DNA from: Candidatus Latescibacterota bacterium
GTDB taxonomy: Bacteria > Latescibacterota > UBA2968 > GCA-2709665
Length of the DNA stretch: 64,000 bases
Assembly: GCA_965116875.1 (NCBI GenBank)
Contig: OZ220733.1
Location: forward strand, 3,456,001-3,520,000
Direction: 5' to 3'
Shown here: in pieces, positions 217-38,627 of the stretch
How the letters are laid out: every line of letters begins with the position of its first letter
Numbering within the stretch: the stretch's first letter is position 1
Made by a program: the position numbers and the translations under genes
Notes under the pieces: model-generated
What the model saw: the letters and a program-made list of their open reading frames with translations, nothing else
The model's database searches: none
What the model was told of the DNA's origin: nothing

Positions 217-1431
217 ATGAAATACAGGTTTTATTTGACGTTCGCGTCTGTACTGTGCTTTTCTTCCGCACACGCGGATTGGCCCCAGTGGCTGGGTCCC
301 GACCGAACGGGGATTTCTACCGAAACGGAATTCCGGAAGACCTGGCCGAAAAACGGCCCTGAGGTCCTGTGGAAGAAGAACCTGGGCGCAGGATTTTCAG
401 GGATCTCGGTGGCGGATGGCCGGGTATTCACCATGTTTGCGGAGGGTGACGATGAGTTCGTCGTCTGTCTGAATGAGGAATCGGGCGATGAAATCTGGCG
501 GTTCAGGACGGGGGGCATGTTCGAGGAGTGGCAGGGTGGCGACGGTCCCCGGTCGCAGCCGACGGTGGACGGAGAACGGGTCTACGTCCTCGGCGCAGAG
601 GGGACGCTGTACGCGCTGACGGCGGCAAACGGCGCAAAGATCTGGACCGTGGACCTGGTCGACGGACTCGGCGGCCGGTTTCCCAGGTTCGGATTTTCGA
701 CTTCGCCGCTGGTGGAAGGCGACTTCCTGTACCTGGAGGCGGCGACGCGCGACGGTACGTTTCTGGCGCTTCAAAGGAAAGACGGCAACGTCGCCTGGGC
801 TTCGCAGAACGACGTGGCTTCGTATTCCTCGCCCATCGCGGTGGATCTGGCCGGCGTGCGTCAGGTGGTCTATTTTTCCGGGGACGCCCTGGTGGGGCTT
901 TCGCCGGCGGACGGGTCCCTTTACTGGAGGTATCCCTGGAAGACGTCGTACGATCTGAACATCGCAACGCCGATCCTCGTGCCGCCGGATCGGGTCTTCA
1001 TTTCCTCGGGCTACGACCATGGCGCCGCGTTGTTGCGAATCGAGGCAGGCAGCGACGGGTTCTCGGCGACTCGGGTCTGGGAGAGCCGGCGGATGAAGAA
1101 CCATTTCGGCACGTCCGTGCTGGTGGGGGACTATCTGTACGGTTTCGATAACGCCATCCTGAAGTGCATCGAAGCACGGACCGGGAAAGAGCAGTGGAAA
1201 CACCGCGGGTATGGCAAGGGGGCGTTGATCTACGCCGACGGCCATCTCCTGCTGATGAGTGACAACGGAAGGCTGGCCCTGGCAACGGCAACGCCGGACG
1301 GATTCGAGGAAAAGGCCGGCGCGCAGGTGCTCGACGGCCGCAGCTGGACGATGCCGACCCTGGCCAACGGCCGCGTGTTCGTCAGGGATATGCGGAAAAT
1401 CGTTTGCCTGGACCTTCGTTCCGGCGGATAG
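217..1431 (+). CDS. Secreted PQQ-binding-like (BamB-type) beta-propeller protein
   Basis: Signal peptide ending SAHA, then DWPQWLGPDRTG; repeated SxP..G and G..xW blade motifs; C-terminal WTMPTLANGRVFVR. Confidence 0.85.
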   Translation: MKYRFYLTFASVLCFSSAHADWPQWLGPDRTGISTETEFRKTWPKNGPEVLWKKNLGAGFSGISVADGRVFTMFAEGDDEFVVCLNEESGDEIWRFRTGGMFEEWQGGDGPRSQPTVDGERVYVLGAEGTLYALTAANGAKIWTVDLVDGLGGRFPRFGFSTSPLVEGDFLYLEAATRDGTFLALQRKDGNVAWASQNDVASYSSPIAVDLAGVRQVVYFSGDALVGLSPADGSLYWRYPWKTSYDLNIATPILVPPDRVFISSGYDHGAALLRIEAGSDGFSATRVWESRRMKNHFGTSVLVGDYLYGFDNAILKCIEARTGKEQWKHRGYGKGALIYADGHLLLMSDNGRLALATATPDGFEEKAGAQVLDGRSWTMPTLANGRVFVRDMRKIVCLDLRSGG

Positions 1432-1449
1432 CGTCTACCATTGAGACTT

Positions 1450-1636
1450 CGAGGAGAGAGGAAAGAGGAGTGAGGAGTGAGTAACGATAAAAAGCAGATC
1501 GGGAAACGCGAAAGGAAAGAGGGGTGAGAGGCCTTTGACTCGCCTTCTCTCTTTTCTCACTACTCTTCACTCTCTCCTCGACTTTTCCCTTCTCTCTTTT
1601 CTCACGTCTCTCCGCTCTCTCCTCTGCTCGTTTCCC
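1450..1636. repeat. Purine-rich heptamer array followed by complementary pyrimidine-rich heptamer array
   Basis: GAGGAGA GAGGAAA GAGGAGT GAGGAGT ... then TTCTCTC TTTTCTC ACTACTC TTCACTC TCTCCTC; CGAGGAGAGAG (1450-1460) is the perfect reverse complement of CTCTCTCCTCG (1570-1580). Confidence 0.75.
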
Positions 1637-1668
1637 TTGTTCCTGCGACGCAAGGTCGGGACGTCCTG

Positions 1669-3801
1669 GTGAAAGGAATTCGAATGATGTTGCATTTTCG
1701 AACGGTTCTACTGGCCGCCATTTTTTCGGGTCTGGCCCTGAACACGGTGTTTGCCGCGGACGACGAGGCGGACGGGGAAGCCGGTGATGATCTTCCCGTT
1801 TACGCCGGCGAAGAGATCGTCGTGACCGAGAGCAAGGAAAAGGTCGCCACGATCGGTTCGGTCGCCAGCAAGATCCCGGTGCCTCTGGGGGAAACGCCCG
1901 CCAGCGTCAGCGTGGTCAACCGCGGGCTGATCGAGCATCAGAGCGGCGTGGTTCTCGGCGACGCCCTTCGCAACGTGAGCGGCGTGAACGTGCAGACGGT
2001 GTTCGGCGTGACGGACTTTTTCGTGATTCGAGGGTTCGATTCGCTGTCGAGCGGGCTGGTGCTGACGGACGGCGCTTCCGAGCCCGAGGCCACGTTCTAC
2101 AATCTCTACAACCTCGACCGTGTGGAGGTGCTGAAGGGCCCCGGCGCGTTTCTCTACGGCGGCAATCCGCTGTCCGGATCCGTGAATCTGAACCGGAAGC
2201 AACCCGTCTTCAAGCGCATCTTTCAGGCCAGGGGCGCTTACGGCCCCTATGGAAGCGTAAGAAGCAGCGTCGACGCCGGCTGGGGGGACCCGGCGCGGGG
2301 CGCGGCCGTGCGTTTCAACGGCCTCCGGCAGGTTTCCGACAACTACCGTGACGACAAGAGCAGTGGCATCTGGGCCCTGAACCCCGCCGTCACCCTGCGA
2401 AACGACAGGACGACGGCCACGGCGAATCTCGAATACGTGACCAGCGAGTACAAGTCCGATTCCGGATTGCCAGTGGCTGGAGGCCAACTGGCCGACGTGC
2501 CGCGAACCCGCTCCTACCAGTCCCCTTTCGATGTTTCGGACCAGGAGATTTATCGGGTGCGGATGGATGTACAGACCCGACTGTCTCCGCGCGTCACGTT
2601 GCGAAACAAGCTGTATTTTACGGATTTTTCCTGGATTTCCAACGGTACGCTGTTCAACGGCGTGTATCCCAACGCCGCGGGAAGCCAGGACCTGGTCAGG
2701 ACGTTGCTGCTTCTCGACGACCGGCAGAAGGTGTTTGGCAATCAGTCTGAGTTTGTGTTCTCGTTCTCCACGGGACGTGCGAATCACACGCTGCTGGCGG
2801 GTCTGGAACTGATGCGGTGGCAGGACAGGTTTACGCTCGACGTTGCGGTCCTGCCGAATATCGATCTGTATTCGCCGGTCGAAACGGCCGCGCTGCCGTA
2901 TTTCGTCGTACCGAATCAATCCCGCGCGGCAGATGCGACGAGCGGCGTGGTTGCGCCGTTTGTCGTCGACCGGATTGTCTTTTCCGATTTTTTCCAGGCG
3001 TTTGTGGGCGCCCGCTTCGACCGGATCCGGTACGACGACCCTGTCACGTCAACGTCGAGGGCGTTTAACGAACTCAGTCCGATGGCGGGCGTGGCGCTGA
3101 ATCCCGCGGAGGACCTGACCCTCTATGCCAGCGCCGGCAAGGCCTTTGCGCCGCCGTCGAGCCTGGTCGCTGGGCCGCGTGACGTTGAATCGGCCACGCA
3201 GTTCGAAGCCGGCGCGAAGAAATTCCTCGTGGACAACCGCCTTCACGCGTCACTGGCTGTCTTCGATCTGCGGAAATACGACATCGGCATCCCGGATGAG
3301 ACCGGCGTGACCAGACAGGACGGGGACCAGCGTTCGCGGGGCATGGAGCTGGAAGTGATGGCGCGTCCCGGCGGCGGTTGCCACGTCTTTCTGACGTACG
3401 CGTATTCCAACGCGGAACTGACACGGTTTACGGAGATGTTGGCCGTACCCACGCCCACCGGGATGCAGTTCCGGCACCTGGACCGGTCCGGCAACAGGCC
3501 GGCCTTCTCGCCGAAACACATACTGAATATCTGGAGCGCACTGGGCTTCGAAAGCGGAATCGAACTGGGACTGGGTGCCAGGTACGTCGGCAGCCAGTTC
3601 ATCGCCGAGGACAATCAGTACCGTATCGGCGGCGTGCTGACGCTTGACGCTTCCGCATCGTACACGTACGGGCACGCGACAATCAGGGTCAATGCCAGGA
3701 ACCTGACCGATCACGAGTACGAGACCCGCGGGTTCGGCGCGATGTCGGTGATTCCGGCGCCGCCTTTCGGCCTGTACGGCGCCATTCAGGTTGACCTGTG
3801 A
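1669..3801 (+). CDS. TonB-dependent outer-membrane receptor (siderophore-receptor-like)
   Basis: Signal peptide, TonB-box-like EEIVVT, plug motifs PASVSVV / DALRNVSGV / RVEVLKGPGAFLYG, C-terminal NLTDHEY barrel motif. Start may be 1684 or 1687. Confidence 0.9.
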   Translation: MKGIRMMLHFRTVLLAAIFSGLALNTVFAADDEADGEAGDDLPVYAGEEIVVTESKEKVATIGSVASKIPVPLGETPASVSVVNRGLIEHQSGVVLGDALRNVSGVNVQTVFGVTDFFVIRGFDSLSSGLVLTDGASEPEATFYNLYNLDRVEVLKGPGAFLYGGNPLSGSVNLNRKQPVFKRIFQARGAYGPYGSVRSSVDAGWGDPARGAAVRFNGLRQVSDNYRDDKSSGIWALNPAVTLRNDRTTATANLEYVTSEYKSDSGLPVAGGQLADVPRTRSYQSPFDVSDQEIYRVRMDVQTRLSPRVTLRNKLYFTDFSWISNGTLFNGVYPNAAGSQDLVRTLLLLDDRQKVFGNQSEFVFSFSTGRANHTLLAGLELMRWQDRFTLDVAVLPNIDLYSPVETAALPYFVVPNQSRAADATSGVVAPFVVDRIVFSDFFQAFVGARFDRIRYDDPVTSTSRAFNELSPMAGVALNPAEDLTLYASAGKAFAPPSSLVAGPRDVESATQFEAGAKKFLVDNRLHASLAVFDLRKYDIGIPDETGVTRQDGDQRSRGMELEVMARPGGGCHVFLTYAYSNAELTRFTEMLAVPTPTGMQFRHLDRSGNRPAFSPKHILNIWSALGFESGIELGLGARYVGSQFIAEDNQYRIGGVLTLDASASYTYGHATIRVNARNLTDHEYETRGFGAMSVIPAPPFGLYGAIQVDL

Positions 3802-5075
3802 GCTCCGTCGGCCTGGAGCGGGACCGACACGTACGGGTCCGGACGCAGTTGCGGCGCCTGAAGGACATGCTCGTCCCCGTCATGCGGGACAACCCGTTTT
3901 ACAGAGATAAGCTGTCCGGGGCCGGATTGTCCTCGCCCGGGGACGTACGGACCCTCGATGATTACAGGCGACTCCCCTTTACAACCAAGGCTGAACTGTC
4001 GGCCGACCAGGACGCGCACCCGCCCTACGGAACCAATCTGACGTATCCTCCGCGGGATTACATCCGGGTCCATCAGACGTCGGGCACGACGGGCAGTCCC
4101 CTGCGCTGGCTGGATACGCGGAAAAGCTGGGACTGGTTCGCAGGCTGCTGGCGCCGGGTTTTCGATGGCGCTGGCGTTACGTCCGAGGACCGGCTGTTTT
4201 TCGCCTTCTCGTTCGGACCGTTCATCGGGTTCTGGACCGCGCACGAAGCCGCCCGGCTGATCGGGGCGATGGCCATTACGGGCGGGTCGATGTCGTCGAC
4301 CCAGCGGCTGCATGCCATCGAGGAACACCGGGCGACGGTTCTGGTCTGCACGCCGACGTACGCGCTGCATCTGGCGGAAGTGGCCGAAACGGAGGGGATC
4401 GACGTCGCGGGTTCCAGCATTCGCGCCACGATTCACGCCGGGGAACCCGGGGCCGGTCTCCCCGCAACGAGACGGCGGATCGAAGAAGCCTGGGGCGCCA
4501 GGTGTTACGACCACGCGGGCGCAACCGAGGCGGGAGCGTGGGGGTTCGAGTGCCGCGCCCGGAACGGCATGCACGTGAACGAAGGCGAGTTCATCTGTGA
4601 AGTGATCGATCCGGATTCCGGGGAGCCGGCCGACGAGGGCGAACTGGTCCTGACGAATCTTGGGCGGGTGGGGATGCCGGTGATCCGTTACCGGACCGGC
4701 GACCGCGTCAGGCGCGCGAAGGGGGCATGCCCATGCGGGTCCGGGTTTCTCCGGCTGGAAAACGGCGTGATCGGCCGCATCGACGGCGGGATCATCATTC
4801 GCGGGATCGTCATCTACCCGAGCGCGGTTGAGAACGTCGTCAGGTCCTTTCCGGAAATAACGGAGTTTGCGGTCGACGTGTACCGGCGTCGTTCCCTGGA
4901 CGAAATGGAGATCCGCGTCGAAGTCAGGGGAAAATCACCGGACGCCGTTGCAGATGACGTGGCGCGGGCAGCGAGGCGGAAGCTGGGGTTCCGTGTCGGG
5001 GTTCGTGCGGTCGGCCCGAACACGCTGCCCAGGTTCGAGCTGAAGGCACAACGGCTTACGGACCATCGGAACTGA
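3798..5075 (+). CDS. Phenylacetate-CoA ligase family (PaaK-like) adenylate-forming enzyme
   Basis: LPFTTKAEL, HQTSGTTGSP, CTPTYALHL, DHAGATE, IRYRTGD and C-terminal LPRFELKAQR motifs; GTGA overlap with receptor stop. Confidence 0.88.
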   Translation: MSSVGLERDRHVRVRTQLRRLKDMLVPVMRDNPFYRDKLSGAGLSSPGDVRTLDDYRRLPFTTKAELSADQDAHPPYGTNLTYPPRDYIRVHQTSGTTGSPLRWLDTRKSWDWFAGCWRRVFDGAGVTSEDRLFFAFSFGPFIGFWTAHEAARLIGAMAITGGSMSSTQRLHAIEEHRATVLVCTPTYALHLAEVAETEGIDVAGSSIRATIHAGEPGAGLPATRRRIEEAWGARCYDHAGATEAGAWGFECRARNGMHVNEGEFICEVIDPDSGEPADEGELVLTNLGRVGMPVIRYRTGDRVRRAKGACPCGSGFLRLENGVIGRIDGGIIIRGIVIYPSAVENVVRSFPEITEFAVDVYRRRSLDEMEIRVEVRGKSPDAVADDVARAARRKLGFRVGVRAVGPNTLPRFELKAQRLTDHRN

Positions 5076-5088
5076 GTTTCCGCGGGAA

Positions 5089-6363
5089 GTGCCAATGGGT
5101 TCAGACTCCTACGATGTCATTGTGATCGGCGGCGGCCCCGCGGGGAGTACCACCGCGGCGCTGGTGGCCGAGTACGGCCATCGCGTGTTGTTGCTCGAGC
5201 GGGAGCGGTTTCCCCGGTTTCAGATCGGCGAGTCGCTGATGCCCGGTACCTACTGGTCGTTCAAACGGCTGGGCGTTCTGGAAAAACTGAAGAAAAGCGC
5301 GTTCGTCAGGAAATACAGCGTGCAGTTCTTCGGTGCGTCGGGAAAAGGATCGGCGCCATTCTATTTTCACCGGCACGACCCGCACGAGAGTTCGGTCACC
5401 TGGCAGGTGTTGCGAAGCGAGTTCGACCGGATGATGCTGGACAACGCCCGCGAGAAAGGGGCGTGCGTGACGCAGGGGACCGCCGTTCAGGAAGTCCTCT
5501 TCGACGGTAGGCGGGCCGTCGGCGTCAGGGCGAAATATAGCGACGGCAGCCTGAACGACCTCCCGGCCCGCGTGGTCGTGGATGCAACGGGCCGCAGCGC
5601 CTTGATTTCCCGCAAGCTGAAAATCAAGGCGGAGGAGCCCACCCTCAAGAAGGCGTCCCTCTTCACGCATTTCGAGAGCGGGTCCAGGGACGAGGGGATC
5701 GACGAGGGGGCGACCCTGATATTGCACACCCGCACGAAGGACGCGTGGTTCTGGTATATCCCGCTGGCCGGCGACGTGGTCAGCGTGGGTGTGGTTGGGG
5801 ATATCGGGTACCTGTTGCAGAAGCGGGAGGGAACGCCCCAGGACATATTCGAAGAGGAATTGGAGAAATGCCGGCCGATGCAGGACCGGCTGGAGCCCGC
5901 CCGGCAGCTGTTTCCCATGAAGGTGACCAGCGATTTCTCCTACCGGGCCCATTCGGTTTCCGGAGATGGCTGGGTGCTGGTTGGCGACGCCTACGGATTT
6001 CTGGATCCCGTCTATTCATCCGGCGTGTTCCTGGCGCTCAAATCCGGCGAAATGGCGGCCGATGCAATTCACGAGGCCTTTCAGAAAGACGATTTTTCCG
6101 CGAAGCGACTCGGTACATGGGGTGAGGAATTCATCCCCGGCATGGAAGCCGTTCGAAAGCTGGTCTACGCGTTCTACACGAAGGAATTCAGTTTCAGCAG
6201 GTTTCTCGACGCCCATCCGGAGTGTCTCGACGGCATCGTGGACATCTTGAGCGGGAAGGTCTATATCAACGACGTCACGCCCATCTTCGGACCGATGGGT
6301 CAGATGTGCGATCTGCCCGAAGACATGGACCACTATGAAAAAGCAATAGAAATTAAGAATTAA
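5089..6363 (+). CDS. FAD-dependent halogenase-like oxidoreductase (Trp-halogenase family, carrier/CoA-tethered-substrate type)
   Basis: GGGPAG FAD motif, FPRFQIGESL, WFWYIP (WxWxIP), GDAYGFLDPVYSSGV. Start 5089 GTG or 5095 ATG. Confidence 0.85.
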   Translation: MPMGSDSYDVIVIGGGPAGSTTAALVAEYGHRVLLLERERFPRFQIGESLMPGTYWSFKRLGVLEKLKKSAFVRKYSVQFFGASGKGSAPFYFHRHDPHESSVTWQVLRSEFDRMMLDNAREKGACVTQGTAVQEVLFDGRRAVGVRAKYSDGSLNDLPARVVVDATGRSALISRKLKIKAEEPTLKKASLFTHFESGSRDEGIDEGATLILHTRTKDAWFWYIPLAGDVVSVGVVGDIGYLLQKREGTPQDIFEEELEKCRPMQDRLEPARQLFPMKVTSDFSYRAHSVSGDGWVLVGDAYGFLDPVYSSGVFLALKSGEMAADAIHEAFQKDDFSAKRLGTWGEEFIPGMEAVRKLVYAFYTKEFSFSRFLDAHPECLDGIVDILSGKVYINDVTPIFGPMGQMCDLPEDMDHYEKAIEIKN

Positions 6364-6713
6364 GAATTGAGAATTAAGAATTGCGTTTGCTGAAAGATAC
6401 CGGCTATCTATCCGAAGACGAATTCGCCAGCATTCATGCCGATGCTGAAGAATTTTGTCGGCTTCTGGCAGCGATTCAGAAGACCGCGAAGGACAAACGC
6501 AGCGCCTGACTCTGATTCTCAATTCTCAATTTTTAATTCTTAATTCTTAATTGATTGTTCCCCATGCAAATTGCCTAATTCGCCGCCGGTTCATTCGCAT
6601 CCATTCCGATGCGGAAGAACTTTGTCGGCTTCTCGCAGCGATTCAGAAGACCGCGAAGGACAAACGCAGCTCCTGACTCTAATTCTTAATTCTCAATTCT
6701 TAATTCTTAATTC
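6351..6713 (+). repeat. Heptamer arrays plus two truncated copies of the four-helix-bundle gene 3' end and a decayed copy of the GT4 start
   Basis: (AATTAAG)n 6351-6382; copy A 6381-6509 and copy B ~6597-6676 match 6981-7105; (TTCTTAA)n at 6514-6553 and 6680-6713; 6551-6589 matches 7308-7346. Confidence 0.85.
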
Positions 6714-6745
6714 GTATGGTGTTGTAGCGAGATTGTGGAGACGAA

Positions 6746-7114
6746 ATGAAGGATGATAACATCGTCCAGGAAAAAGGCTATGGATTTGCAGTTCGAGTGG
6801 TACGGCTCTATCAACACTTGTCAACGGAAAAGAAGGAATTCGTGCTATCAAAGCAATTGTTACGCTCTGGAACCGGTATTGGAGCTAACATCGAAGAGGC
6901 GATTGGTGGTCAGTCCCGTGCAGACTTTGTCAGCAAGATGGCCATCGCCTATAAAGAAGCTCGTGAAAGCAGCTATTGGCTGCGTTTACTGAAAGATACA
7001 GACTATTTGTCCGAAGACGAATTCGCCAGCATTCATTCCGATGCTACAGAACTTTGTCGGCTACTCGCAGCGATTCAGAAGACCGCGAAGGACAAACGTA
7101 CCGCCAAATCCTAA
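6746..7114 (+). CDS. Four-helix-bundle protein (23S rRNA IVP / bAvd-like family)
   Basis: KQLLRSGTGIGANIEEA, SRADFVSKMAIAYKEARESSYWLRLL signature; GGAG RBS; markedly lower GC than neighbours. Confidence 0.9.
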   Translation: MKDDNIVQEKGYGFAVRVVRLYQHLSTEKKEFVLSKQLLRSGTGIGANIEEAIGGQSRADFVSKMAIAYKEARESSYWLRLLKDTDYLSEDEFASIHSDATELCRLLAAIQKTAKDKRTAKS

Positions 7115-7320
7115 TTCGTAACTCTTAATTTGTAATTTTAATCTGTTAATTCCCATGCAAATTGCCTAATTCGCCGCCGGTTCATTCGCATCCACTCCGA
7201 TGCGGAAGATCTTTGTCGGCTTCTCGCAGCGATTCAAAAGACCGCGAAGGACAAACGCAGCGCCTGACTCCGACTCTAATTCTTAATTCGTAATTCTTAA
7301 TTCTCAATTGATTAATCCCC
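7112..7320 (+). repeat. Heptamer array, decayed GT4-start copy, third four-helix-bundle 3' copy and heptamer array
   Basis: 7151-7310 is a ~150-bp direct repeat of 6560-6713. Confidence 0.85.
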
Positions 7321-8613
7321 ATGCGAATTGCTTATATCGCCGCCGGCGCCGCGGGGATGTATTGCGGAAGCTGCATTAACGACAATACGCTGGCCTCGGC
7401 GCTCAGGCGCAAGGGAGTCGACGTGGCGCTGATTCCAACGTACACGCCGCTGCGGACCGATGGTCCGGACGAGAGCATCGACCGTGTGTTCTACGGCGGA
7501 ATCAACGTCTATCTCCAGCAAAAACTGGCGTTCTTTCGTCGCGCGCCGGAATTCGTGGACCGCCTGATGAACGCGCGGACACTCTTGAATTCGCTTTCGT
7601 GGTTCACCGGATCGACGCGTGCGGAGGAGCTGGGGGCGCTCACGGTCTCTATGCTGAAGGGGGAACAGGGTTGCCAGAGGAAGGAGCTGAAAAAGCTGGT
7701 CCGGTGGCTGAAAGACGACCTGCGCCCGGACCTTGTTCATCTGACGAATTCCATGTTTCTCGGCATGGTACGCGAGTTGAAGCGTGAACTGGGCGTTCCC
7801 GTTCTGTGTTCCGTGCAGGGAGAGGAGGTTTTTCTCGACGGGTTGGTCAGACCGTACCGGGACGAGGCGTTGCATGCGATGCGCGACCGGGCGGGCGACG
7901 TGGACGCATTTGTGGCAACGTGCGACTGGTACGCGGCGTCCATGGCCGCGTACCTGAGTGCGCCGCGCGAACGCTTCCGCGTGGTTCCCCTGGGCATCCG
8001 TCTGGATGGCCACGGCGAGGCCGATCGGGTCTTGCCGGAGACGCCGTTTACGATTGGCTACATGGCCCGCATCGCGCCGGAGAAGGGACTGCATCTTCTG
8101 GCGGATGCCGTGGGGCGGCTGGCGGAGCAGGTGGGAAAAGAAAATGTCAGGTTGCTGGCGGCGGGTTATCTGGGCGGGCGTGAGAAGCGCTACTTTCGCG
8201 AGGTCGTCTCGTTGATTGCATCCCGCGGGATTTCCAACGCCTTCGAGTACCGAGGCGAGGTGGACCGGCAGCAGAAAATCGATTTTCTGAACAGCGTCCA
8301 TGTCTTGTCTGTACCCACGCCGTATCGGGAACCGAAGGGGCTCTTCGTATTGGAGGCGCTGGCCAGCGGTACGCCGGTGGTCCAGCCGCGTCACGGCGCG
8401 TTCCCGGAGCTTCTCGAACGCACCGGAGGCGGCATCCTGGTCGATCCGGACTCTCCGGCTGCGCTCGCGGAGGGGCTGTCCCGGATGATGAGCGACAGGG
8501 AGGCCCGGGAAGGCATGGGGAGACGGGGCCGTGCGGCCGTGCTCCGGACGGCCGGCGACGGGTGCATGGCCGACGCCATGCTGGACGTCTATCGACAATT
8601 CGTCCCGGCGTGA
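7321..8613 (+). CDS. Glycosyltransferase family 4 (GT-B) with N-terminal CxxC motif
   Basis: MRIAYIAAGAAGMYCGSC; ARIAPEKGLHLL; EPKGLFVLEALASGTPVV (E-x7-E motif). Confidence 0.9.
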   Translation: MRIAYIAAGAAGMYCGSCINDNTLASALRRKGVDVALIPTYTPLRTDGPDESIDRVFYGGINVYLQQKLAFFRRAPEFVDRLMNARTLLNSLSWFTGSTRAEELGALTVSMLKGEQGCQRKELKKLVRWLKDDLRPDLVHLTNSMFLGMVRELKRELGVPVLCSVQGEEVFLDGLVRPYRDEALHAMRDRAGDVDAFVATCDWYAASMAAYLSAPRERFRVVPLGIRLDGHGEADRVLPETPFTIGYMARIAPEKGLHLLADAVGRLAEQVGKENVRLLAAGYLGGREKRYFREVVSLIASRGISNAFEYRGEVDRQQKIDFLNSVHVLSVPTPYREPKGLFVLEALASGTPVVQPRHGAFPELLERTGGGILVDPDSPAALAEGLSRMMSDREAREGMGRRGRAAVLRTAGDGCMADAMLDVYRQFVPA

Positions 8614-8694
8614 TCCGTCCTCGGACCGAGGTTCCGGCGGCTTGCTCCGGCCCGAAGAGCGACTTTATCAACGGACTGCAAAGGGGGAGAAAAT

Positions 8695-9195
8695 ATGCCG
8701 GCCGAACAGGCAACCACGCCAGGGCTGACCTGGTTGATATTCGCCGCCATGACGGTAGGGGCATGGGGACTGTACGGAATCTTTCTGCATACCGGGCAAA
8801 TTGCAATGGCCGATCCCGTGAACGGACGGTACAAAGCGTTCCTGCTGGTGGGCGTGGCGTATCTGCTGACCGCGGTCATCGGTTCCATGATCGTCCTCTG
8901 GGTGAACGGCTCGGACTGGTCGTTTCCCGTGCGCGGGTTCACGTGGTCTCTGCTTGCAGGCACCGTGGGCGCCATCGGCGCATTCGGCGTCCTGCTCGCG
9001 TTCGGGGCCCGGGGCACGCCTGCCGTTGTGATGTCGATCGTGTTCGCGGGGGCGCCCATTGTCAACGCCGTCGTGTCGATGGCCGTGCACCCGCCCGCCG
9101 GTGGATGGGGCGCGCTGAACTGGCAGTTCGTGCTGGGCATCGTACTCGCGGCGATGGGGGGGTGCCTCGTGACGCTCTTCAAGCCGGCGTCGTGA
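8695..9195 (+). CDS. Small integral membrane protein, DMT/EamA-like
   Basis: About five hydrophobic helices, WGLYGIFLH start, VMSIVFAGAPIVNA motif; GGGAG RBS. Confidence 0.7.
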   Translation: MPAEQATTPGLTWLIFAAMTVGAWGLYGIFLHTGQIAMADPVNGRYKAFLLVGVAYLLTAVIGSMIVLWVNGSDWSFPVRGFTWSLLAGTVGAIGAFGVLLAFGARGTPAVVMSIVFAGAPIVNAVVSMAVHPPAGGWGALNWQFVLGIVLAAMGGCLVTLFKPAS

Positions 9196-9281
9196 CCTCT
9201 CCGCCCGGCCGCTGGCGATACCGTCTGGCGTCTCCCGTCTCCCCCCATTCGGAATCGTTCAATTCGTGGTTGTGTGGTTTT

Positions 9282-9306
9282 GTAGGGGCGTCCCTTGTGG
9301 GCGCCC
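9282..9306 (+). repeat. GTAG-type REP element
   Basis: GTAGGGGCGTCCCTTGTGGGCGCCC; related copies at 24883, 24931 (inverted), 48551 (inverted), 48626, 48839. Confidence 0.8.
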
Positions 9307-9331
9307 GGTGGAATCCCTGAGAGGAAGTCCT

Positions 9332-9772
9332 GTGCCAAGCGAATTCCGGACCACGCGAAGAGTTGAGTTTTCGGATACGGACATGGCCGGGATTGTGCAT
9401 TTTTCCCGGTTTTTCGATTTCATGGAGGCGGCCGAACACGCGTTTCTGCGTTCGATCGGCACGAGCGTGGCGGGCACATGGGAAGGGCGCAGGGTCGGAT
9501 GGCCCCGGGTGGGCGCGTCGTGTGACTATCTGAATCCTGTCCGGTTCGAGGACCGGCTGGATGTGCGGTTGAAAGTGATCCGAAAAGGGACGAGTTCCAT
9601 AACCTACGGTTTTGAGTTCCGGCGTGACAATGTCCTTATCGCCCGCGGCCGGTTGAGCGCGGTGTTCTGCGAGTGCGCCCCGGGAGAGCCGCTCCGTTCC
9701 ATGCCGATACCCGACTTCATCGCCGATCAGATCCAGGAGGCGAAGGATGGAGGGGACGATGCTGAGGGCTGA
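9332..9772 (+). CDS. Acyl-CoA thioesterase (4HBT/YbgC hot-dog fold)
   Basis: RRVEFSDTDMAGIVHFSRFFDFMEAAE motif; GTG at 9332 follows GAGG RBS (track ORF from 9266 runs through the REP). Confidence 0.88.
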   Translation: MPSEFRTTRRVEFSDTDMAGIVHFSRFFDFMEAAEHAFLRSIGTSVAGTWEGRRVGWPRVGASCDYLNPVRFEDRLDVRLKVIRKGTSSITYGFEFRRDNVLIARGRLSAVFCECAPGEPLRSMPIPDFIADQIQEAKDGGDDAEG

Positions 9773-10415
9773 GCGGGTATCGAAGCAGTATGGCGACGTA
9801 TCCGTCTTGCGGAACGTCTCGTTCGAGATGGCGCCCGGTCAGTCGATGGCAGTTGTCGGGCCTTCGGGGTCGGGCAAGAGTACGCTGCTGCACGTGATCG
9901 GCACGCTGGACAGACCGTCCTCCGGCCGGGTGGCGTTCGACGGCCGGGACCCATACGCCCTCTCCGGGAAGGAGCTCGCGCGCTTTCGGAACCAGGGGAT
10001 CGGATTCGTCTTCCAGGACCACCATCTGCTGCCTCAGTTTTCCGTTCTGGAGAACGTGCTTCTGCCGACGCTGGCGTTCCGGGACGAGAAACGGGACGCC
10101 GCTGCAAGGGCGCGGGACCTGATCGAACGGGTCAGTCTCGGGCATCGGACCCACCACCGCCCCGCCGCCCTGTCGGGGGGAGAACGCCAGCGGGTGGCGG
10201 TGGCGCGAGCGCTGGTCAACAGGCCGGCGCTGCTTCTTTGCGATGAGCCGACGGGCAGTCTGGATCGGGCCCGGGCGAATGAGGTCTTCGATCTGCTCTT
10301 CGAGTTGCACGCTCAGGAACAGACCATTCTGATCGGCGTTACGCACAGCCCGGAAATGGCCGCGAGATTCGAGCGCCGGATGTCGCTGCGGGAGGGAACT
10401 TGCGTAGAAGCCTGA
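9759..10415 (+). CDS. ABC transporter ATP-binding protein (LolD/MacB-like)
   Basis: Walker A GPSGSGKST, FVFQDHHLL, LSGGERQRVAVARAL, LLCDEPTGSLD. Confidence 0.92.
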   Translation: MLRAERVSKQYGDVSVLRNVSFEMAPGQSMAVVGPSGSGKSTLLHVIGTLDRPSSGRVAFDGRDPYALSGKELARFRNQGIGFVFQDHHLLPQFSVLENVLLPTLAFRDEKRDAAARARDLIERVSLGHRTHHRPAALSGGERQRVAVARALVNRPALLLCDEPTGSLDRARANEVFDLLFELHAQEQTILIGVTHSPEMAARFERRMSLREGTCVEA

Positions 10416-13720: not shown

Positions 13721-13876
13721 ATGCGCTTTCGGCTGTCGAATGGCGGATTTTTCCGGGGCCGGACAACAAGGTTCAGCGGCCAAATTAAGAATACTGTTTT
13801 GGGATCGCAGAGTGTATCTTCAATGAAAGGCACGTAGCAGCACTTCACCGATCATACGTCGTGAAGGGAGCATGAA

Positions 13877-15172
13877 ATGAATCGAATGACTGTGATCCTG
13901 ACCGCTTTCTGTCTGGTGGTTGTCGCCGGACCGGCGGCGTCGAACTGGCCGCATTGGCGCGGTCCGAACCGCAACGGGCTGGTCGACGGGAGTCCGCCCG
14001 TACAGTGGAGCGAACAGAAGAATATCCGATGGAAGGCGCCCATTCCAGGCCTGGGGCACGCAACGCCGATTGTCTGGGGCGACCGTATTTTCGTGCAAAC
14101 CGCGGTGAGGACTGACAAACTTGCTGCGGACACCGGCAAGGGAAGGCGACGCCCGCCACCCAATCTGTTTCAGTACAGGGTCCTGGCGCTGGACCGGCAT
14201 ACCGGGGAAACCGTCTGGGAAAAGACGGTTCGGGAGGCCCGGCCTCACGAGGGAATGCACCGCACGGCATCGTTTGCGTCTCCGTCGGGCATCACGGACG
14301 GAGAGAACCTCTATGCGTATTTCGGATCACAGGGGCTTTATTGCCTCGATATGGACGGCAATCTGAGGTGGGAGAAAGACCTGGGCAAATACTGGAGCAG
14401 AAGCGCCTTCGGCGAGGGGGCTTCGCCGACGATCCACGGCAACGCGCTGTTGATCAACTGGGACCACGAAGGGGACTCGTTCATCGTCGCGCTGGACAAG
14501 AAAACGGGAAGGGAACTCTGGCGCAAGGCTCGAGATGAGGTGACGTCCTGGTCCACGCCGCTGACCGTGGACCGCGGCAAGCAGACCCAGGTGATCGTGA
14601 GTGCGTCGGCCCGCACCCGGAGCTACGACCTGAAAGATGGGGCGCAGATCTGGGAATGCGGCGGCCTGGGGACGAACGTGATACCGACGCCGCTGTATGC
14701 AAACGGGGTGGTGTACGTGGCCAGCGGTCACAGCAGTCCCGCCATGCAGGCCATCTCGCTGGATACGGCAAGGGGCGATATCTCGGATTCGGATTCGGTA
14801 CTCTGGTCGATAACGCGGGATACCCCGTACGTGTCGTCACCGCTGCTCGATGGCGACAGGCTGTTTTTCGTGAAAGGCAGGGGGGCGTTCCTGTCTTGCT
14901 ACAATCCCGCAACGGGCGAACCGCGCTTCGGGCCCATACGTCTGAACGGGATCGGCTTCGTCTACGCGTCTCTGGTTGGCGCGGACGGCCGCGTGTACAT
15001 TTCCGATCTGGACGGGAAGACGCTCGTCATCAGGAACGGCCCTGAATTCGAAATCCTGGCGACGAACACCCTGGATGAAGGGAGCGGGGCGTCCCCTGTG
15101 GTTGTGGGGGACGCGCTCTATCTGAGGGGGCGCAGCCACCTATATTGTATCGCGGAAGACCGGAAGAATTGA
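13877..15172 (+). CDS. Secreted PQQ-binding-like beta-propeller protein
   Basis: Signal peptide, NWPHWRGPNRNG, repeated SP..G/W blades, C-terminal ASPVVVGDALYLRG. Confidence 0.85.
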   Translation: MNRMTVILTAFCLVVVAGPAASNWPHWRGPNRNGLVDGSPPVQWSEQKNIRWKAPIPGLGHATPIVWGDRIFVQTAVRTDKLAADTGKGRRRPPPNLFQYRVLALDRHTGETVWEKTVREARPHEGMHRTASFASPSGITDGENLYAYFGSQGLYCLDMDGNLRWEKDLGKYWSRSAFGEGASPTIHGNALLINWDHEGDSFIVALDKKTGRELWRKARDEVTSWSTPLTVDRGKQTQVIVSASARTRSYDLKDGAQIWECGGLGTNVIPTPLYANGVVYVASGHSSPAMQAISLDTARGDISDSDSVLWSITRDTPYVSSPLLDGDRLFFVKGRGAFLSCYNPATGEPRFGPIRLNGIGFVYASLVGADGRVYISDLDGKTLVIRNGPEFEILATNTLDEGSGASPVVVGDALYLRGRSHLYCIAEDRKN

Positions 15173-15212
15173 CAGACTTGAAACCCGTATCCGAAACGAG
15201 AGAGGAGTTTCG

Positions 15213-16211
15213 ATGAACCGCTTCCTGGCATTGAAACCAGCGTGCGTTGCATCCTTCATCCTCCTGCTGGGTGCGTCCGGGTGCGAAGGGCCGGACGATT
15301 CGCGGGAAACGTCCGCGCCGGAGCGCCGGTTCCTGAGCGTGGGCACCGCGCCCCCCGGCGGCGCGTTCTTCGTGGTTGGCGGGGCGATCGCTCAGGTCGT
15401 GGACGACCACGGAGGAGAGCTGTCCTGGGACGTGACCGCGGAGGCAACCAAGGGGACGCAGGAAAACATCCGGCGCCTCGTGCGCGGCGAACTGGATTTC
15501 GCGCTGGCCAATGCCGCGATTTCGTATTTCGCCGTGAGAGGCGAGGGCGCCTGGGGTGAAAAGCACGAAATCAACGCCGTCATGACGCTGGCGCCGAATA
15601 TCGCCCTGTTCGTTACGCCGGAGGGGTCCGGGGTCCGCGCCATCGACGATCTCAAGGGCAAACGGGTGGTCGTTGGTCCTGCCGGGGCCGGTTTCGAGTA
15701 TTTTCTTGCGCCGATTCTGGAGGCGCACGGCGTCACCTATGATGACTTCAGCCCGTTACACAATACGCAGGCCGGGGCTGTGGATATGCTTGCGGACGGC
15801 TCCGCCGCGGCCGCGTTTCTGGGCGGCGCGGTTCCCACGGCGTCCATCACCCAGGCAAGCGCCTCTCAGGACATTCACTTTATCCCCTTCGGGGTCCCCG
15901 AAAAGGAACGCCTGTTCCGGAACTATCCGTTCTTCAACGCGGCGAGTATTCCCGCGGAAACCTATCGCGGCCAGACCGAAGCCTTCGAAGGGTTGAACGT
16001 GGGCGCGATGCATCTGGTGACACCGGCCGCCCTGGACGAGGAGACCGTGTATCGTTTTACCAGAATCCTGTACGAAAATCGCGCGGACGTGGTCAGGAAG
16101 CACCCCGCGGGCAAAGCGATTCATCCGGCGAACGTGATTCGGGACACGGGGACGCCCTTCCATCCCGGCGCGATCAGGTATTACCGGGAAATCGGGATCT
16201 GGCCCAACTGA
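15213..16211 (+). CDS. TAXI-family TRAP transporter solute-binding lipoprotein
   Basis: Lipobox-like LGASGC, GTAPPGGAFF, C-terminal PFHPGAIRYYREIG. Confidence 0.9.
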   Translation: MNRFLALKPACVASFILLLGASGCEGPDDSRETSAPERRFLSVGTAPPGGAFFVVGGAIAQVVDDHGGELSWDVTAEATKGTQENIRRLVRGELDFALANAAISYFAVRGEGAWGEKHEINAVMTLAPNIALFVTPEGSGVRAIDDLKGKRVVVGPAGAGFEYFLAPILEAHGVTYDDFSPLHNTQAGAVDMLADGSAAAAFLGGAVPTASITQASASQDIHFIPFGVPEKERLFRNYPFFNAASIPAETYRGQTEAFEGLNVGAMHLVTPAALDEETVYRFTRILYENRADVVRKHPAGKAIHPANVIRDTGTPFHPGAIRYYREIGIWPN

Positions 16212-16212
16212 C

Positions 16213-18144
16213 ATGCTCGAATCGTGGTTCTTTCGCATCCTGGCGGCCCTGCTGGGGTTCTTTGTCCTGGCGGAGGTCAACTATCCGGGACTGACGCCTC
16301 AAGCCCAACTGGCATTCTTCGCCATGTTGGGCTTGAGTCTTGTATTCCTGAAGCACCCGTTATGTGCCGGGACCGCCCGGACGCCGCTTCCCCGGATTCT
16401 GGACTATCTGCTCGTCGCGGGTGTTTTCCTCTGTTTCGGTTACGTGCTGGTCCAGACTGAACCGGCGTTCAGAAACTGGTGGCCGGACGGCCGGAGCCTT
16501 GGCAATCGTGCCGGGCTCGAACAACCGCTGGACTGGACAGTGGGTCTTGCCGGCCTGATCCTGGTCCTGGAAGCGACCCGCCGGGCGATCGGCCCGATCC
16601 TTCCCGTGCTCGCCCTCGTCTTCCTGGCATACGCCGCCTTCGGTCACGTCATGCCGGACTGGCTCTTCCCGCACCGGGGCTACGGCTGGGAACGGATCGT
16701 CTCCCAGACTTTTCTGCATTCGCAGGGCGTATTCGGCATTGCGCTGAAGGTGATGTTCACCTACGTGTTTCTCTTTGTGCTGTTCGGCACGGCGCTGGAG
16801 GGGACGGGAGCGACGGGCTACGTGCTGGATGCCGCGCGCCGGTTTTTCGGAAAGCGCACCGGCGGCTCCGCGAAGGTTGCCGTCGTCGCTTCGGGGATCA
16901 TGGGATCGCTTTCCGGAAGTGCGGTCGCCAACACGGCCACAACGGGTACGTTCACGATCCCGATGATGCGTTCGGCAGGATTCCGGCCCGTGACGGCCGG
17001 GGGAGTCGAGGCGGCGGCCAGCTCGGGTGGGGCGCTTGTGCCGCCGATCATGGGAGCCGGCGCCTATATGATGCTGGAGATGGTGGAGCCGGCGGTCACC
17101 TATCTCGAGATCGTAAAAGCGGCCCTCATCCCCGCGGCATTCTACTATACCGCGCTTCTCCTGATCGTCCACTTCCACGCCCGGCGCATCCGGGTTGTCT
17201 CGGGGGATGAAGCGCCCTCGAGTCGTCCGCCGGGCGCCCAGGGCCTTGTCTTTCTGGTGGCCCTCGCGAGCCTCGTCCTGTTGATTGTTGCGGGTTATAC
17301 GCCGTTCCGGGCGGTCAGCATCGCGCTGGCGTGCATGCTCCTGGCGGCCGCGTGGACGCCGTCGACGCGAATGGGGCCGCGCGCGATGCTGCGCGCGGTG
17401 GAGAGCGCGGCTCACGGCGGCGTGTCTCTCATCGCGGCTGCCGCCTGCGTCGGAATCATCATCGGGGTTGTCACGCTGACGGGGATCGGCGCCAAACTGC
17501 CCGGCGCCATTCTGCCGCTGGCGCAGAACAACCTGGTCCTCGCCCTGATTCTGCTGATGGTCTCCACCATCATACTTGGAATGGGCCTGCCTTCGGCCGT
17601 ATGCTATCTCCTCATGGCCACGCTTGTCGGACCCGTCCTGGGCGGGTTGGGCGTTGCGCCCCTGGCGGCGCACATGTTCATCTTCTACTTCGGGATGATG
17701 TCCATGGTGACGCCTCCCGTGGCGCTGGCGGCATACACCGCCGCGGCGATCGCCAGGGCGGACATCATGCGCACCGGCGTCGCCGCGTTTCGATTCGCGC
17801 TGGTCGGCTTCGCCCTTCCCTATGCCTTCGTGCTGCATCCCGAACTGCTTCTCGTCTCCTCCGACGCTGCGTCGACCCTCGTCAACGTGCTTGTTGCCTT
17901 CGCCGGGATTCTACCACTCGCGGTGGCCATATCGGGATTCGGTTTCGGGCCCGTCAATGCGTGGCAACGCGTCATTCTGCTTGTGGCGGCGCTTGTGCTG
18001 TTTCTGACGCCTTCCGGCGCGTATCGGGTCTGGCTGCAGGCATCCGCCCTGCTGGTTTCAGGAATCATCGCATTCGCAAACCGTCAGGCGGCCCGCGGCC
18101 TGTCCTCGTCATCGGACGATCGCGCTGATTCGCCGCACCGGTGA
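16213..18144 (+). CDS. TRAP transporter fused 4TM/12TM permease
   Basis: GGSAKVAVVASGIMGSLSGSAVAN, EAAASSGGALVPPIMGAGAY, LGMGLP, TPPVALAAY. Confidence 0.92.
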   Translation: MLESWFFRILAALLGFFVLAEVNYPGLTPQAQLAFFAMLGLSLVFLKHPLCAGTARTPLPRILDYLLVAGVFLCFGYVLVQTEPAFRNWWPDGRSLGNRAGLEQPLDWTVGLAGLILVLEATRRAIGPILPVLALVFLAYAAFGHVMPDWLFPHRGYGWERIVSQTFLHSQGVFGIALKVMFTYVFLFVLFGTALEGTGATGYVLDAARRFFGKRTGGSAKVAVVASGIMGSLSGSAVANTATTGTFTIPMMRSAGFRPVTAGGVEAAASSGGALVPPIMGAGAYMMLEMVEPAVTYLEIVKAALIPAAFYYTALLLIVHFHARRIRVVSGDEAPSSRPPGAQGLVFLVALASLVLLIVAGYTPFRAVSIALACMLLAAAWTPSTRMGPRAMLRAVESAAHGGVSLIAAAACVGIIIGVVTLTGIGAKLPGAILPLAQNNLVLALILLMVSTIILGMGLPSAVCYLLMATLVGPVLGGLGVAPLAAHMFIFYFGMMSMVTPPVALAAYTAAAIARADIMRTGVAAFRFALVGFALPYAFVLHPELLLVSSDAASTLVNVLVAFAGILPLAVAISGFGFGPVNAWQRVILLVAALVLFLTPSGAYRVWLQASALLVSGIIAFANRQAARGLSSSSDDRADSPHR

Positions 18145-21104: not shown

Positions 21105-21220
21105 CCGCACCTCCTGTACGACGGTTCGTGCGCCAACCGTTGCCTCCGTTTCCGGGTGATCCGGCGCTCCTGCAGCCGCGCAATTGCCGCCGGTGAATCC
21201 GGAACGGCATTCTCAGATTG

Positions 21221-22432: not shown

Positions 22433-22433
22433 T

Positions 22434-23534: not shown

Positions 23535-23553
23535 GTGCCTGGCTCCTGTCCTG

Positions 23554-23717
23554 AGAAGCTGTTTTAAAATTACCGGTGCGTTCCCGAGCGCGAGCGAAAA
23601 AGTGGCGGTCAAGGCGGGAGAATCCGCCCATATTTGTCTATACGGGCGGGTTTGACCAACGCCGACCGGCGCTTTTGCAGCCGTGCGAAGACCGCTGGGA
23701 ATTTTAAGACAGCTTCT
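23554..23717. mobile_element. 164-bp MITE-like element
   Basis: 18-bp terminal inverted repeats AGAAGCTGTTTTAAAATT / AATTTTAAGACAGCTTCT (one mismatch); internal hairpin around CAAGGCG...AACGCCG. Confidence 0.7.
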
Positions 23718-26541: not shown

Positions 26542-27014
26542 AGCCGGACGGCTATGTTGTCCTGGAGAGCAGGATCGCGGCTTCCACCCTGGAAGGCCGT
26601 GCCCTTAGCGCTCTTTTTCTACCCTTTTGTTCCCATCCCGAATTCAACTATCAGGCGAACGTACGGTTCAGGCCAGGGATAGAGCCTCAGATTGCGGCTA
26701 TATCTTTCGGTAATCGGAAAACTCACGAAAAATTAATAAAAATCATCAGAAAGGCATAGGAATTTCCAAAATATATGATTATTATCACGATACACAGTTC
26801 ATTCGGCGGCAGACTTTTGGCACCGGCGTATTCTCCGATTCCACCTGATGGGTTCCGCGTGGGAGCAATCGACCCACACGGAGCAGGCGTTGCAAGATCA
26901 GCCACCTAGCCGCACCTCGGCCGACAAATCGGATTGGATTCTGTGCGAATTCATAAGAAAGACGAGGATTCGGAAATGCAAGCCACCGGATATCGCCTCA
27001 GCGGAAGGAAAGGC

Positions 27015-31715: not shown

Positions 31716-31784
31716 GCTGTTGTCAGGCGGGGAACTACGAAACTGGTTGAGGGGTGGTTCGGATACCGCCCTTGCTGCACGCGC

Positions 31785-31964: not shown

Positions 31965-32098
31965 CAAACGAACAGGTACATAACTTGCCTCCTTGATGAA
32001 CGTTATGTGACAACTATCGGAAACCTTACGCGACGAGTATATCGATATTTTCTTACACCGCGCTAAGGGATGTCTTCGCGCGATCTGGTGTTTAGAGA

Positions 32099-38622: not shown

Positions 38623-38627
38623 TTACA

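Follow-up and report, generated by a model that had tools for sequence, protein, structure and literature searches.

The 64,000-nucleotide (nt) stretch of contig OZ220733.1 analysed here (Candidatus Latescibacterota bacterium, assembly GCA_965116875.1, positions 3,456,001 to 3,520,000 of the forward strand), called the window below, contains the last 18 kb of an orphan biosynthetic and transport gene cluster of about 24.5 kb. The cluster is real and is common to sponge-associated and other bacteria of several phyla. It encodes a putative halogenase pathway without a carrier protein, polyketide synthase (PKS) or nonribosomal peptide synthetase (NRPS), joined to an unusual set of transport systems; as far as the accessible part of the source goes, this architecture is already in print (Loureiro et al., bioRxiv 10.64898/2026.08.03.742642). 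As the best available explanation, put forward tentatively, an aromatic acid would be imported, activated as a coenzyme A (CoA) ester, halogenated, released, glycosylated and exported.

Gene content and limits of the cluster

The cluster occupies genome positions 3,449,658 to 3,474,144 (about), with approximately 6.3 kb lying upstream of the window start. Open reading frames were listed and scanned against protein families. All of the cluster genes in the window are on the plus strand, co-oriented and often overlapping, and are given below with window positions.

217–1431, +: exported BamB/PQQ_2-type β-propeller (PQQ1); PQQ_2 156.6 bits, signal-peptide-like N-terminus by eye
1669–3801, +: TonB-dependent receptor of the siderophore-receptor subfamily; plug and barrel, TIGR01783 263.7 bits (cut-off 223.5)
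3798–5075, +: PaaK-like acid-CoA ligase; AMP-binding and AMP-binding_C_2 domains
5089–6363, +: flavin-dependent halogenase-like enzyme; Trp_halogenase 91.4 bits (cut-off 21)
7321–8613, +: GT4 glycosyltransferase with an unusual N-terminal half; Glycos_transf_1 95.9 bits
8695–9195, +: small membrane protein of 166 residues with about five hydrophobic segments; frame and hydropathy
9266–9772, +: hot-dog (4HBT/YbgC-type) acyl-CoA thioesterase; 4HBT_2 50.4 bits, 4HBT 41 bits, start codon uncertain
9747–10415, +: LolD/YbbA/MacB-type ABC ATPase; ABC_tran 124.4 bits, YbbA 197.6 bits
10400–13720, +: duplicated FtsX-type permease of 1106 residues; FtsX twice, MacB_PCD once, two large periplasmic stretches
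13877–15172, +: second exported BamB/PQQ_2-type propeller (PQQ2); PQQ_2 118.3 bits, signal-like N-terminus by eye
15213–16211, +: TAXI-family TRAP solute-binding lipoprotein; TIGR02122 255.4 bits (cut-off 84.35)
16213–18144, +: fused TRAP permease; TIGR02123 544.6 bits (cut-off 320.65)

Overlaps of 4 to 26 nt occur at the receptor/ligase, thioesterase/ATPase and ATPase/permease junctions, and the ligase and halogenase genes are 14 nt apart. The receptor, ligase, halogenase-like, GT4, thioesterase, ABC, propeller and TAXI-TRAP genes had been listed, as co-oriented and often overlapping, in an earlier reading of this DNA made from the letters alone (the sequence-only reading), and all are present in that arrangement. 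The borders that it drew, within the window, were wrong. The 16 kb before the window contain five more co-oriented genes that belong to the cluster, encoding an EhpF-like adenylating enzyme, a protein of aldehyde dehydrogenase (ALDH) fold, an iron-containing alcohol dehydrogenase (Fe-ADH), a third propeller and a HemN-like radical S-adenosylmethionine (radical-SAM) protein, the last of these genes ending 393 nt upstream of PQQ1.

Related loci were collected from contigs of one genome per species. There were 599 candidate stretches, 539 of which encode a relative of the flavoprotein, and locus counts were taken from the best 80. Counts for single genes include only loci with enough flank, and a match required 35% identity or more across half of the query or more. 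The limits of the cluster were placed at about 3,449,658 and 3,474,144 because the flanking genes on both sides are not conserved with it: three minus-strand genes tested downstream of the TRAP permease were found in none of the 80 related loci, and four upstream flanking genes (GFO/IDH/MocA, LarA-like and PcRGLX-like among them) in only 0 to 3 of the 80.

A scan of 39 larger frames in the window, 26 of them outside the cluster, revealed no PKS or NRPS. The whole genome has five PP-binding matches, the nearest approximately 163 kb from the cluster, so no carrier-protein match lies closer. The statement of the sequence-only reading that PKS, NRPS and carrier protein are missing therefore holds.

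The halogenase-like flavoprotein

The protein encoded at 5089–6363 carries the GxGxxG motif (GGGPAG) at residue 14, a lysine at residue 75 and the WxWxIP motif (WFWYIP) at residue 220; together, such a GxGxxG, lysine and WxWxIP mark flavin-dependent halogenases. In the loci that cover them, GxGxxG is retained in 77 of 77, the lysine in 78 of 78 and WxWxIP in 80 of 80. Lys75 aligns with the lysine of `RKY' in FasV and of `KKF' in PltA, and we take this position to be the catalytic lysine that carries or guides the halogenating species. A phmmer search of solved structures gave FasV (229.5 bits), PltA (195.2), CndH (193.8), Mpy16 (187.1) and CmlS (171.5), and the predicted model of the protein is closest to FasV, Bmp2 and PltA (TM-scores of 0.81–0.83, E values down to 2e-31). 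Among the NCBIfam halogenase families the best match is the CmlS equivalog NF033113, at 214.5 bits and below its cut-off of 900. Conservation is unusually high, with 51–94% identity among the listed relatives across phylum labels.

By sequence and predicted fold, the flavoprotein is thus assigned to the PltA/Bmp2/FasV halogenase clade, in agreement with its designation as halogenase-like in the sequence-only reading. With PltA, Bmp2, Mpy16, CndH and FasV it shares full-length sequence similarity and fold, the three motif elements and a short chain without a large substrate-binding C-terminal module; it differs from them in that identity is only 27–33% and that no carrier protein, PKS or NRPS is near its gene.

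A reading as geranylgeranyl reductase was considered and rejected: TIGR02032 gave 139.3 bits, below the cut-off of 158.8, and solved reductases scored at most 65.4 bits, compared with 171–230 for halogenases. Apparent halogenase fusions (frames of 800–900 residues in one genus) were likewise discarded: delimited from stop to stop, they extend upstream across the ligase gene in a reading frame different from that of the ligase.

Two further observations concern the flavoprotein gene in other genomes. In genus g4 of the same phylum, about ten halogenase matches are reported with one stop (TAA, TGA or TAG) within the match, which may be a real break or a match that continues beyond the natural end of the gene. 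In three Poribacteria loci (L008, L010 and L025), a 68–73% identical halogenase gene lies between a secretin gene, on its 5′ side, and TPR and PhyH genes, and no further cluster gene is present within 10 kb of it.

Conservation across phyla

By record title, the related loci come from Gemmatimonadota, Latescibacterota, Poribacteria, KSB1, Acidobacteriota (Vicinamibacteria and Thermoanaerobaculia) and Planctomycetota (including a Kuenenia record), with one Deltaproteobacteria record and several unclassified records in addition. The HemN-like gene (49 of 67 loci) and the ligase gene (51 of 70) are the two most frequent neighbours of the halogenase. They are followed by the third propeller (42 of 65), TAXI (40 of 74), Fe-ADH (31 of 65), GT4 (29 of 72), the thioesterase (26 of 65), the small membrane protein (23 of 65), the ABC ATPase (23 of 64), the FtsX-type permease (18 of 64) and the TonB-dependent receptor (18 of 67). 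Most loci have between one and three propeller genes with the cluster. An orthologue of PQQ1 (at least 35% identity) is present in 24 of the 67 loci with enough upstream flank, and true orthologues of PQQ2 (58–90% identity) are restricted to the closest loci. Gene linkage thus recurs in records of six phylum labels, and also at the genome level (see below); conservation of this kind had been proposed as one check on the sequence-only reading.

GT4 and the small membrane protein

The GT4 matches its solved relatives over residues 194–427 only, the donor-binding half. Its N-terminal half contains a C-G-S/T-C motif that is present in all 31 homologues aligned from residues 1–3. The adjacent protein of 166 residues has no match in Pfam or NCBIfam, even at an E value of 10. 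It is 65–96% identical in most loci (41% in L073 and L077) and always adjoins the GT4, including in the three Poribacteria regions that were fetched (72–75% identity); the two genes are the tightest pair of the cluster.

The sequence-only reading had named a DMT protein here. A membrane protein does exist, but its frame was re-called to 8695–9195, and only automatic naming supports the DMT label: look-alike clusters in the atlas are called DMT permease (score 0.97), with an EamA-bearing cluster at rank 21. The longest frame between the GT4 and thioesterase genes (8562–9320), first taken as the `DMT' gene, translates to arginine-rich nonsense and was replaced.

Ligase, thioesterase and upstream enzymes

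The best solved relatives of the ligase are phenylacetate-CoA ligase (PDB entry 4r1l; 219 bits) and 2-hydroxyisobutyryl-CoA synthetase (189 bits), and that of the thioesterase is PDB entry 5wh9, which is named 4-hydroxybenzoyl-CoA thioesterase. Upstream of the window, an adenylating enzyme of 365 residues matches EhpF over its full length in a search of the PDB (151 bits); its gene is followed by those for the ALDH-fold protein and the Fe-ADH. `LuxE/LuxC' labels were tried for two of the upstream genes and dropped, since Pfam gave only a sub-threshold AMP-binding match (26.8 bits) and a weak Aldedh match, and the PDB search gave EhpF. EhpF acts on an aromatic carboxylate, and EhpF and EhpG together serve carboxylate reduction. 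The EhpF-like, ALDH-fold and Fe-ADH order would therefore fit the conversion of an acid to an aldehyde and then to an alcohol. The full-length match and this gene order resemble EhpF/EhpG of D-alanylgriseoluteic acid (phenazine) biosynthesis in Pantoea agglomerans; the present cluster differs in having no phenazine genes, and its EhpF-like module lies upstream of the window. The HemN-like protein is identified only at the level of fold and family.

Substrate clues from the Planctomycetota form

Six Planctomycetota-labelled loci encode a protein of 180 residues directly upstream of the halogenase, and none of the six has the ligase. The most distant two copies are 34% identical. A model predicted from the six sequences (predicted local distance difference test score, pLDDT, of 92.6) matches DUF98 (E value 3e-8, TM-scores 0.68/0.76) and UbiC, the chorismate lyase of Escherichia coli (E value 2.6e-5, TM-scores 0.57/0.61). 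Pfam and NCBIfam gave no match, and a profile search of PDB sequences gave only DUF98 at an E value of 0.3. In the same loci a major facilitator superfamily (MFS) gene precedes the GT4; its nearest family is the aromatic-acid/H+ symporters (91 bits, below the cut-off). In this form, the chorismate-lyase-fold protein and the MFS transporter substitute for the ligase and for the remaining importers. In the Latescibacterota, the KSB1 and some of the Poribacteria loci the transporter before the GT4 is a sodium:solute symporter.

The genome of the window (97.7% complete) has no match to the profile of the 180-residue protein or to PF04345, the Pfam chorismate lyase family; in the control for the PF04345 search, only E. 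coli was positive. The substrate would therefore have to be imported in this organism. The replacement of the ligase by a chorismate-lyase-fold protein in Planctomycetota points to a hydroxy-aromatic acid as substrate. Taken together, the sequence and model comparisons point to import of such an acid in this organism and, in Planctomycetota, to its synthesis from chorismate.

Bromophenols made by way of Bmp6 and Bmp5, and the p-hydroxybenzoate glycosides of mycobacteria made by way of Rv2949c, are known products of routes that combine a chorismate lyase with a halogenase or a glycosyltransferase. The Planctomycetota form resembles these in having a chorismate-lyase-fold (DUF98-like) protein directly upstream of the halogenase and a glycosyltransferase after it. 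It differs in that the halogenase is not of the Bmp5 type, and the form in the window has a ligase and importers and lacks the lyase.

Proposed route

In the proposed route, a hydroxy-aromatic carboxylic acid would be taken up by the TAXI-TRAP system; other lineages would use a sodium:solute symporter or MFS transporter, or make the acid from chorismate. The PaaK-like ligase would form its CoA thioester, the flavin-dependent halogenase would act on the ring while it is tethered to CoA and not to a carrier protein, and the 4HBT-type thioesterase would free the halogenated acid. The EhpF-like enzyme, the ALDH-fold protein and the Fe-ADH may then reduce a carboxyl group to the alcohol, and the HemN-like radical-SAM enzyme may add a methyl group or remove a carboxyl group. 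The product would be glycosylated by the GT4 and moved out of the inner membrane by the small membrane protein and the LolD-type ABC system. Outside the cytoplasm, the exported propellers and the TonB-dependent receptor may bind or recapture it.

The sequence-only reading had suggested a route of this kind. Its carrier-free aromatic-acid logic stands in outline, given the lack of a PP-binding match nearby, the CoA-ligase relatives, the 4HBT-type thioesterase and the Planctomycetota variant, whereas its order of steps and its product are conjecture. Here too, the substrate class, the step order, the direction of transport and the product are what we infer from gene content, family membership, conserved linkage and the intact halogenase motifs.

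Several observations weigh against the proposed route. The substrates of PltA/Bmp2-clade halogenases are mostly polyketides, or pyrrole or tyrosine bound to a carrier, and halogenation of a CoA-tethered substrate consequently has little precedent. The halogenase model is of moderate confidence (mean pLDDT 76.6). The ligase falls below the PaaK equivalog cut-offs (TIGR02155, 207 versus 646.3 bits; NF041878, 236 versus 700 bits) and is PaaK-like, not PaaK; the HemN-like protein is under the cut-offs of its four top-scoring families and all others listed (for HemN, ChuW and HemW, 181.3 versus 324.95, 179.3 versus 400 and 163.7 versus 205.4 bits). The thioesterase is kept in Planctomycetota and Acidobacteriota forms that have no ligase, and the two enzymes are therefore not a strict pair. 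The 180-residue model also matches the ligand-binding UTRA domains of GntR regulators nearly as well (TM-scores of about 0.5–0.57); because the chorismate-lyase fold is shared with UTRA domains, the protein may bind a ligand instead of catalysing a reaction. Of the four transport systems, three belong to importer families, as would be expected for uptake no less than for recapture. The polyprenyl synthase and cyclase-like neighbours of the halogenase in the Kuenenia form (see below) hint at a lipid-linked product. Finally, in most Poribacteria loci the GT4, thioesterase and ABC genes are not near the halogenase, and the thioesterase, ATPase and permease were not found in three Poribacteria regions of 19.9 kb around the GT4.

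Transport systems and a possible envelope-bound product

The TonB-dependent receptor reaches its subfamily but no specific receptor equivalog. The ABC ATPase scores 260 bits against LolD (TIGR02211; cut-off 307.75) and the permease 16 bits against LolC/E (cut-off 362.45); the pair is LolD/YbbA-like and has no membrane-fusion or outer-membrane partner. The TAXI gene is directly 3′ of the halogenase in most Poribacteria loci, and in one Poribacteria genome the TRAP permease adjoins the GT4 and the small membrane protein.

A product bound to the cell envelope, for example a prenylated or lipid-anchored halogenated phenolic glycoside or a quinone-like lipid, is an unlikely alternative but the first to be weighed. 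Here the membrane protein would flip the product, the LolD-type ABC system would extract it, and the propellers and the outer-membrane barrel would deliver it to the surface. ABC systems of the LolCDE, YbbAP and MacB kind extract molecules from the membrane, and the present pair is of this kind, with large periplasmic domains and neither partner named above. The pairing of the GT4 with the small membrane protein, and the export signals seen by eye on all three propellers and TAXI, are also consistent with such a product. So are genes of the two Kuenenia-type loci, L075 (1476–9757) and L079. In these, a HemN-like radical-SAM protein, a GcvH-like protein, a ferredoxin, a second radical-SAM protein, a cyclase-like protein and a polyprenyl synthase fused to DUF116 are encoded upstream of the halogenase, a prenyltransferase-like gene lies between those for the thioesterase and the ATPase, and a protein of 409 residues without a family follows the permease. 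The polyprenyl genes are, however, confined to these two loci, both Planctomycetota-labelled; enzymes of the PaaK and EhpF types act on small or aromatic acids and not on lipids; and the cluster in the window has no acyltransferase or prenyltransferase, the sole UbiA gene in the window being 33 kb away.

Possible catabolism or salvage of aromatic acids

Alternatively, the genes might serve to import aromatic, possibly halogenated, acids that stem from the host or the environment, activate them with CoA, transform them and release the products, which we consider improbable. The TonB-dependent receptor, the TAXI-TRAP system and the sodium:solute symporters of related loci are importers by family, and the genome of the window lacks a chorismate-lyase match. 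The 4-chlorobenzoate (fcb) pathway consists of a ligase, a dehalogenase, a 4HBT thioesterase and TRAP uptake, and the ligase and thioesterase found here would supply its frame. Both systems have an acid-CoA ligase, a step that modifies the CoA ester, a 4HBT-type thioesterase and a TRAP-family importer in one operon. In the cluster, however, the middle enzyme is a halogenase-type flavoprotein and not a crotonase dehalogenase, and the GT4, the reductive genes and the ABC exporter are additional. The GT4, the reductive EhpF-like module and the exporter-type ABC system are anabolic features, and the Planctomycetota form appears to make its own substrate. The halogenase lysine and WxWxIP motif are kept in every locus that covers them, and we know of no reverse (dehalogenating) role for this enzyme family.

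One system or two blocks

Of the 59 loci with 9 kb on both sides of the halogenase, 42 have the HemN-like gene, 21 have the GT4 and thioesterase genes, 19 have both and 15 have neither. The last group consists of thirteen Poribacteria loci and two Planctomycetota-labelled loci, in which the flavoprotein occurs in other contexts. On these counts the cluster is made up of two separable blocks, the first running from the EhpF-like gene to the halogenase and including TAXI, and the second comprising the GT4 (with a preceding symporter in some loci), membrane protein, thioesterase, ATPase and permease genes.

The same counts could mean that the blocks are two or more unrelated units that happen to adjoin, and the absence of the second from within 10 kb of the halogenase in most Poribacteria loci, with a distance between GT4 and halogenase of 0.4 to 3.8 Mb in three genomes, would agree with this. 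Against it, all five of the Poribacteria genomes that lack the second block at the halogenase have a GT4 orthologue (53–60% identity) elsewhere, and both markers are thus kept in five of five. Of 151 genomes sampled from the phylum to which the window belongs, 81 have the flavoprotein, once per genome (by family 16 of 18, 27 of 30, 37 of 64 and, in the others, 0 of 38; by genus 16 of 46). The GT4, counted at 45% identity or more with five matches of 33–37% set aside as distant relatives, was also found in 81. Both are present in 79 genomes, the halogenase only in two, the GT4 only in two and neither in 68, and the four genomes with a single gene are incomplete (75 and 77% complete for halogenase only, 84 and 86% for GT4 only). 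Because related genomes are not independent, this co-occurrence is read as suggestive and not as a statistical test. Overall, the data strongly suggest that the halogenase and GT4 blocks form one system, and unrelated units are decidedly improbable.

Propellers and possible cofactor maturation

It is very improbable that the enzymes make or mature a cofactor for the neighbouring propellers or modify a ribosomal peptide: the flavoprotein scores 137 and 117 bits against the tryptophan-modifying maturases QhpG and LodB, one or more propellers accompany most loci and PQQ-like domains are noted at high frequency in such clusters in the accessible part of the preprint (10.64898/2026.08.03.742642), but the halogenase scores are far higher, the propellers (BamB/PQQ_2-type, 400–440 residues) lie far below all PQQ-dehydrogenase cut-offs (best 25 to 77 bits versus at least 480) and are exported whereas the enzymes are cytoplasmic, and no precursor gene was noticed, small frames not having been searched systematically. 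The cofactor alternative, raised in the sequence-only reading, found no support beyond adjacency.

Prior literature and significance

Loureiro et al. (bioRxiv 10.64898/2026.08.03.742642) described `Halo_AMP' clusters, which combine a flavin halogenase with an AMP-binding enzyme, from sponge metagenomes. According to the accessible part of the preprint, 840 such clusters were found, none with a MIBiG counterpart; PQQ-like domains, TonB-dependent transporters, ABC transporters, thioesterases, glycosyltransferases and radical-SAM genes are frequent in them; PaaK-type enzymes are the best matches of the adenylation-domain genes; and the origins include Latescibacterota, Poribacteria and Acidobacteriota. 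There the clusters are treated as sponge-specific peptide-like pathways, and the detailed work concerns another type with P450s. The cluster in the window shares with this class the halogenase and AMP-binding enzyme in one cluster (here 14 nt apart) and all of the accessory gene types listed. It differs in that its core is also found in records whose labels indicate other habitats, such as Kuenenia, Vicinamibacteria and KSB1. Judged by gene content, not by sequence, the cluster very likely belongs to the Halo_AMP class as far as the accessible part of the preprint describes it. No characterised pathway with this gene set was found in the literature, which agrees with the sequence-only reading; the architecture had, however, already been noted in the accessible part of the preprint, the only report found.

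A fuller proposal is that one strongly conserved, patchily spread cluster, recorded under six or more phylum labels, produces a halogenated phenolic glycoside through carrier-free, CoA-tethered halogenation, exports it and recaptures it by way of its own receptor, propellers and TRAP system. We regard it as doubtful in its entirety. If correct, it would describe a `make, export, recapture' loop like that of a metallophore or a signal and, in sponge symbionts, a possible bacterial source of simple bromophenolic metabolites that are credited to the host. The halogenated aromatics of sponges are mostly of unknown maker, and this cluster, found in 81 of the 151 sampled genomes of a single symbiont phylum and overall in hundreds of species, is a concrete and testable candidate. 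Carrier-free activity in a PltA/Bmp2-clade halogenase would broaden the substrate logic known for the clade and could be useful for biocatalysis. The receptor, the propellers and the unusual GT4 with its membrane partner have a role in no characterised pathway that was found, and the Planctomycetota form, with a chorismate-lyase-fold protein for the ligase, provides a specific substrate hypothesis.

Low-GC insert, repeats and neighbouring genes

A low-GC insert outside the pathway separates the halogenase and GT4 genes.

6364–7320, no strand: insert of 957 nt; GC fraction 0.519 in 6001–8000, about 0.62–0.65 around
6746–7114: gene for a four-helix-bundle protein of the 23S rRNA IVS family within the insert; PF05635 97.6 bits

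Within the insert, a 171-nt unit repeating the 3′ end of the four-helix-bundle gene is present four times, and a 69-nt stretch, which takes in the start of the GT4 gene, three times; there are also AT-rich inverted repeats of the AATTCTTAATTC type. A 91% identical copy is found at the same position in one related locus (L009); at this position other loci have a sodium:solute symporter or MFS gene. The insert looks as if a small mobile unit had inserted repeatedly, immediately 5′ of the GT4 gene, at the place where other lineages carry the symporter.

Two spacers of the cluster are also repetitive or variable. Window positions 1 to about 180, in the spacer between the HemN-like gene and PQQ1, belong to a short dispersed repeat with 41 matches of 38–160 nt (69–95% identity) in the single-contig genome of 5.45 Mb, one copy lying inside the window near 48280–48372. 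Numerous alternative joints and loose ends were seen in metagenome contigs at the spacer between PQQ1 and the receptor gene (1431–1669), which suggests a variable or repeated element.

Word matches for the window stretch were mainly in sequencing runs labelled as sponge or reef metagenome. Contigs from one RNA library (sponge metagenome) match pieces of the receptor, ligase, GT4, ATPase, permease and second propeller genes with two to seven differences per 194–637 nt (for example 14227–14863, 637 nt with four differences), which is no proof of transcription.

Directly after the cluster, minus-strand genes at 19539–23612 encode a carboxyl transferase, a family III CoA-transferase and a seven-bladed lactonase, found in none of the 80 loci. 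Eukaryote-like repeat proteins are often reported from sponge symbionts, and further downstream, at 26934–46844, the window contains a run of five WD40-propeller proteins (630–983 residues) and a fibronectin-III/cadherin protein of 2106 residues.

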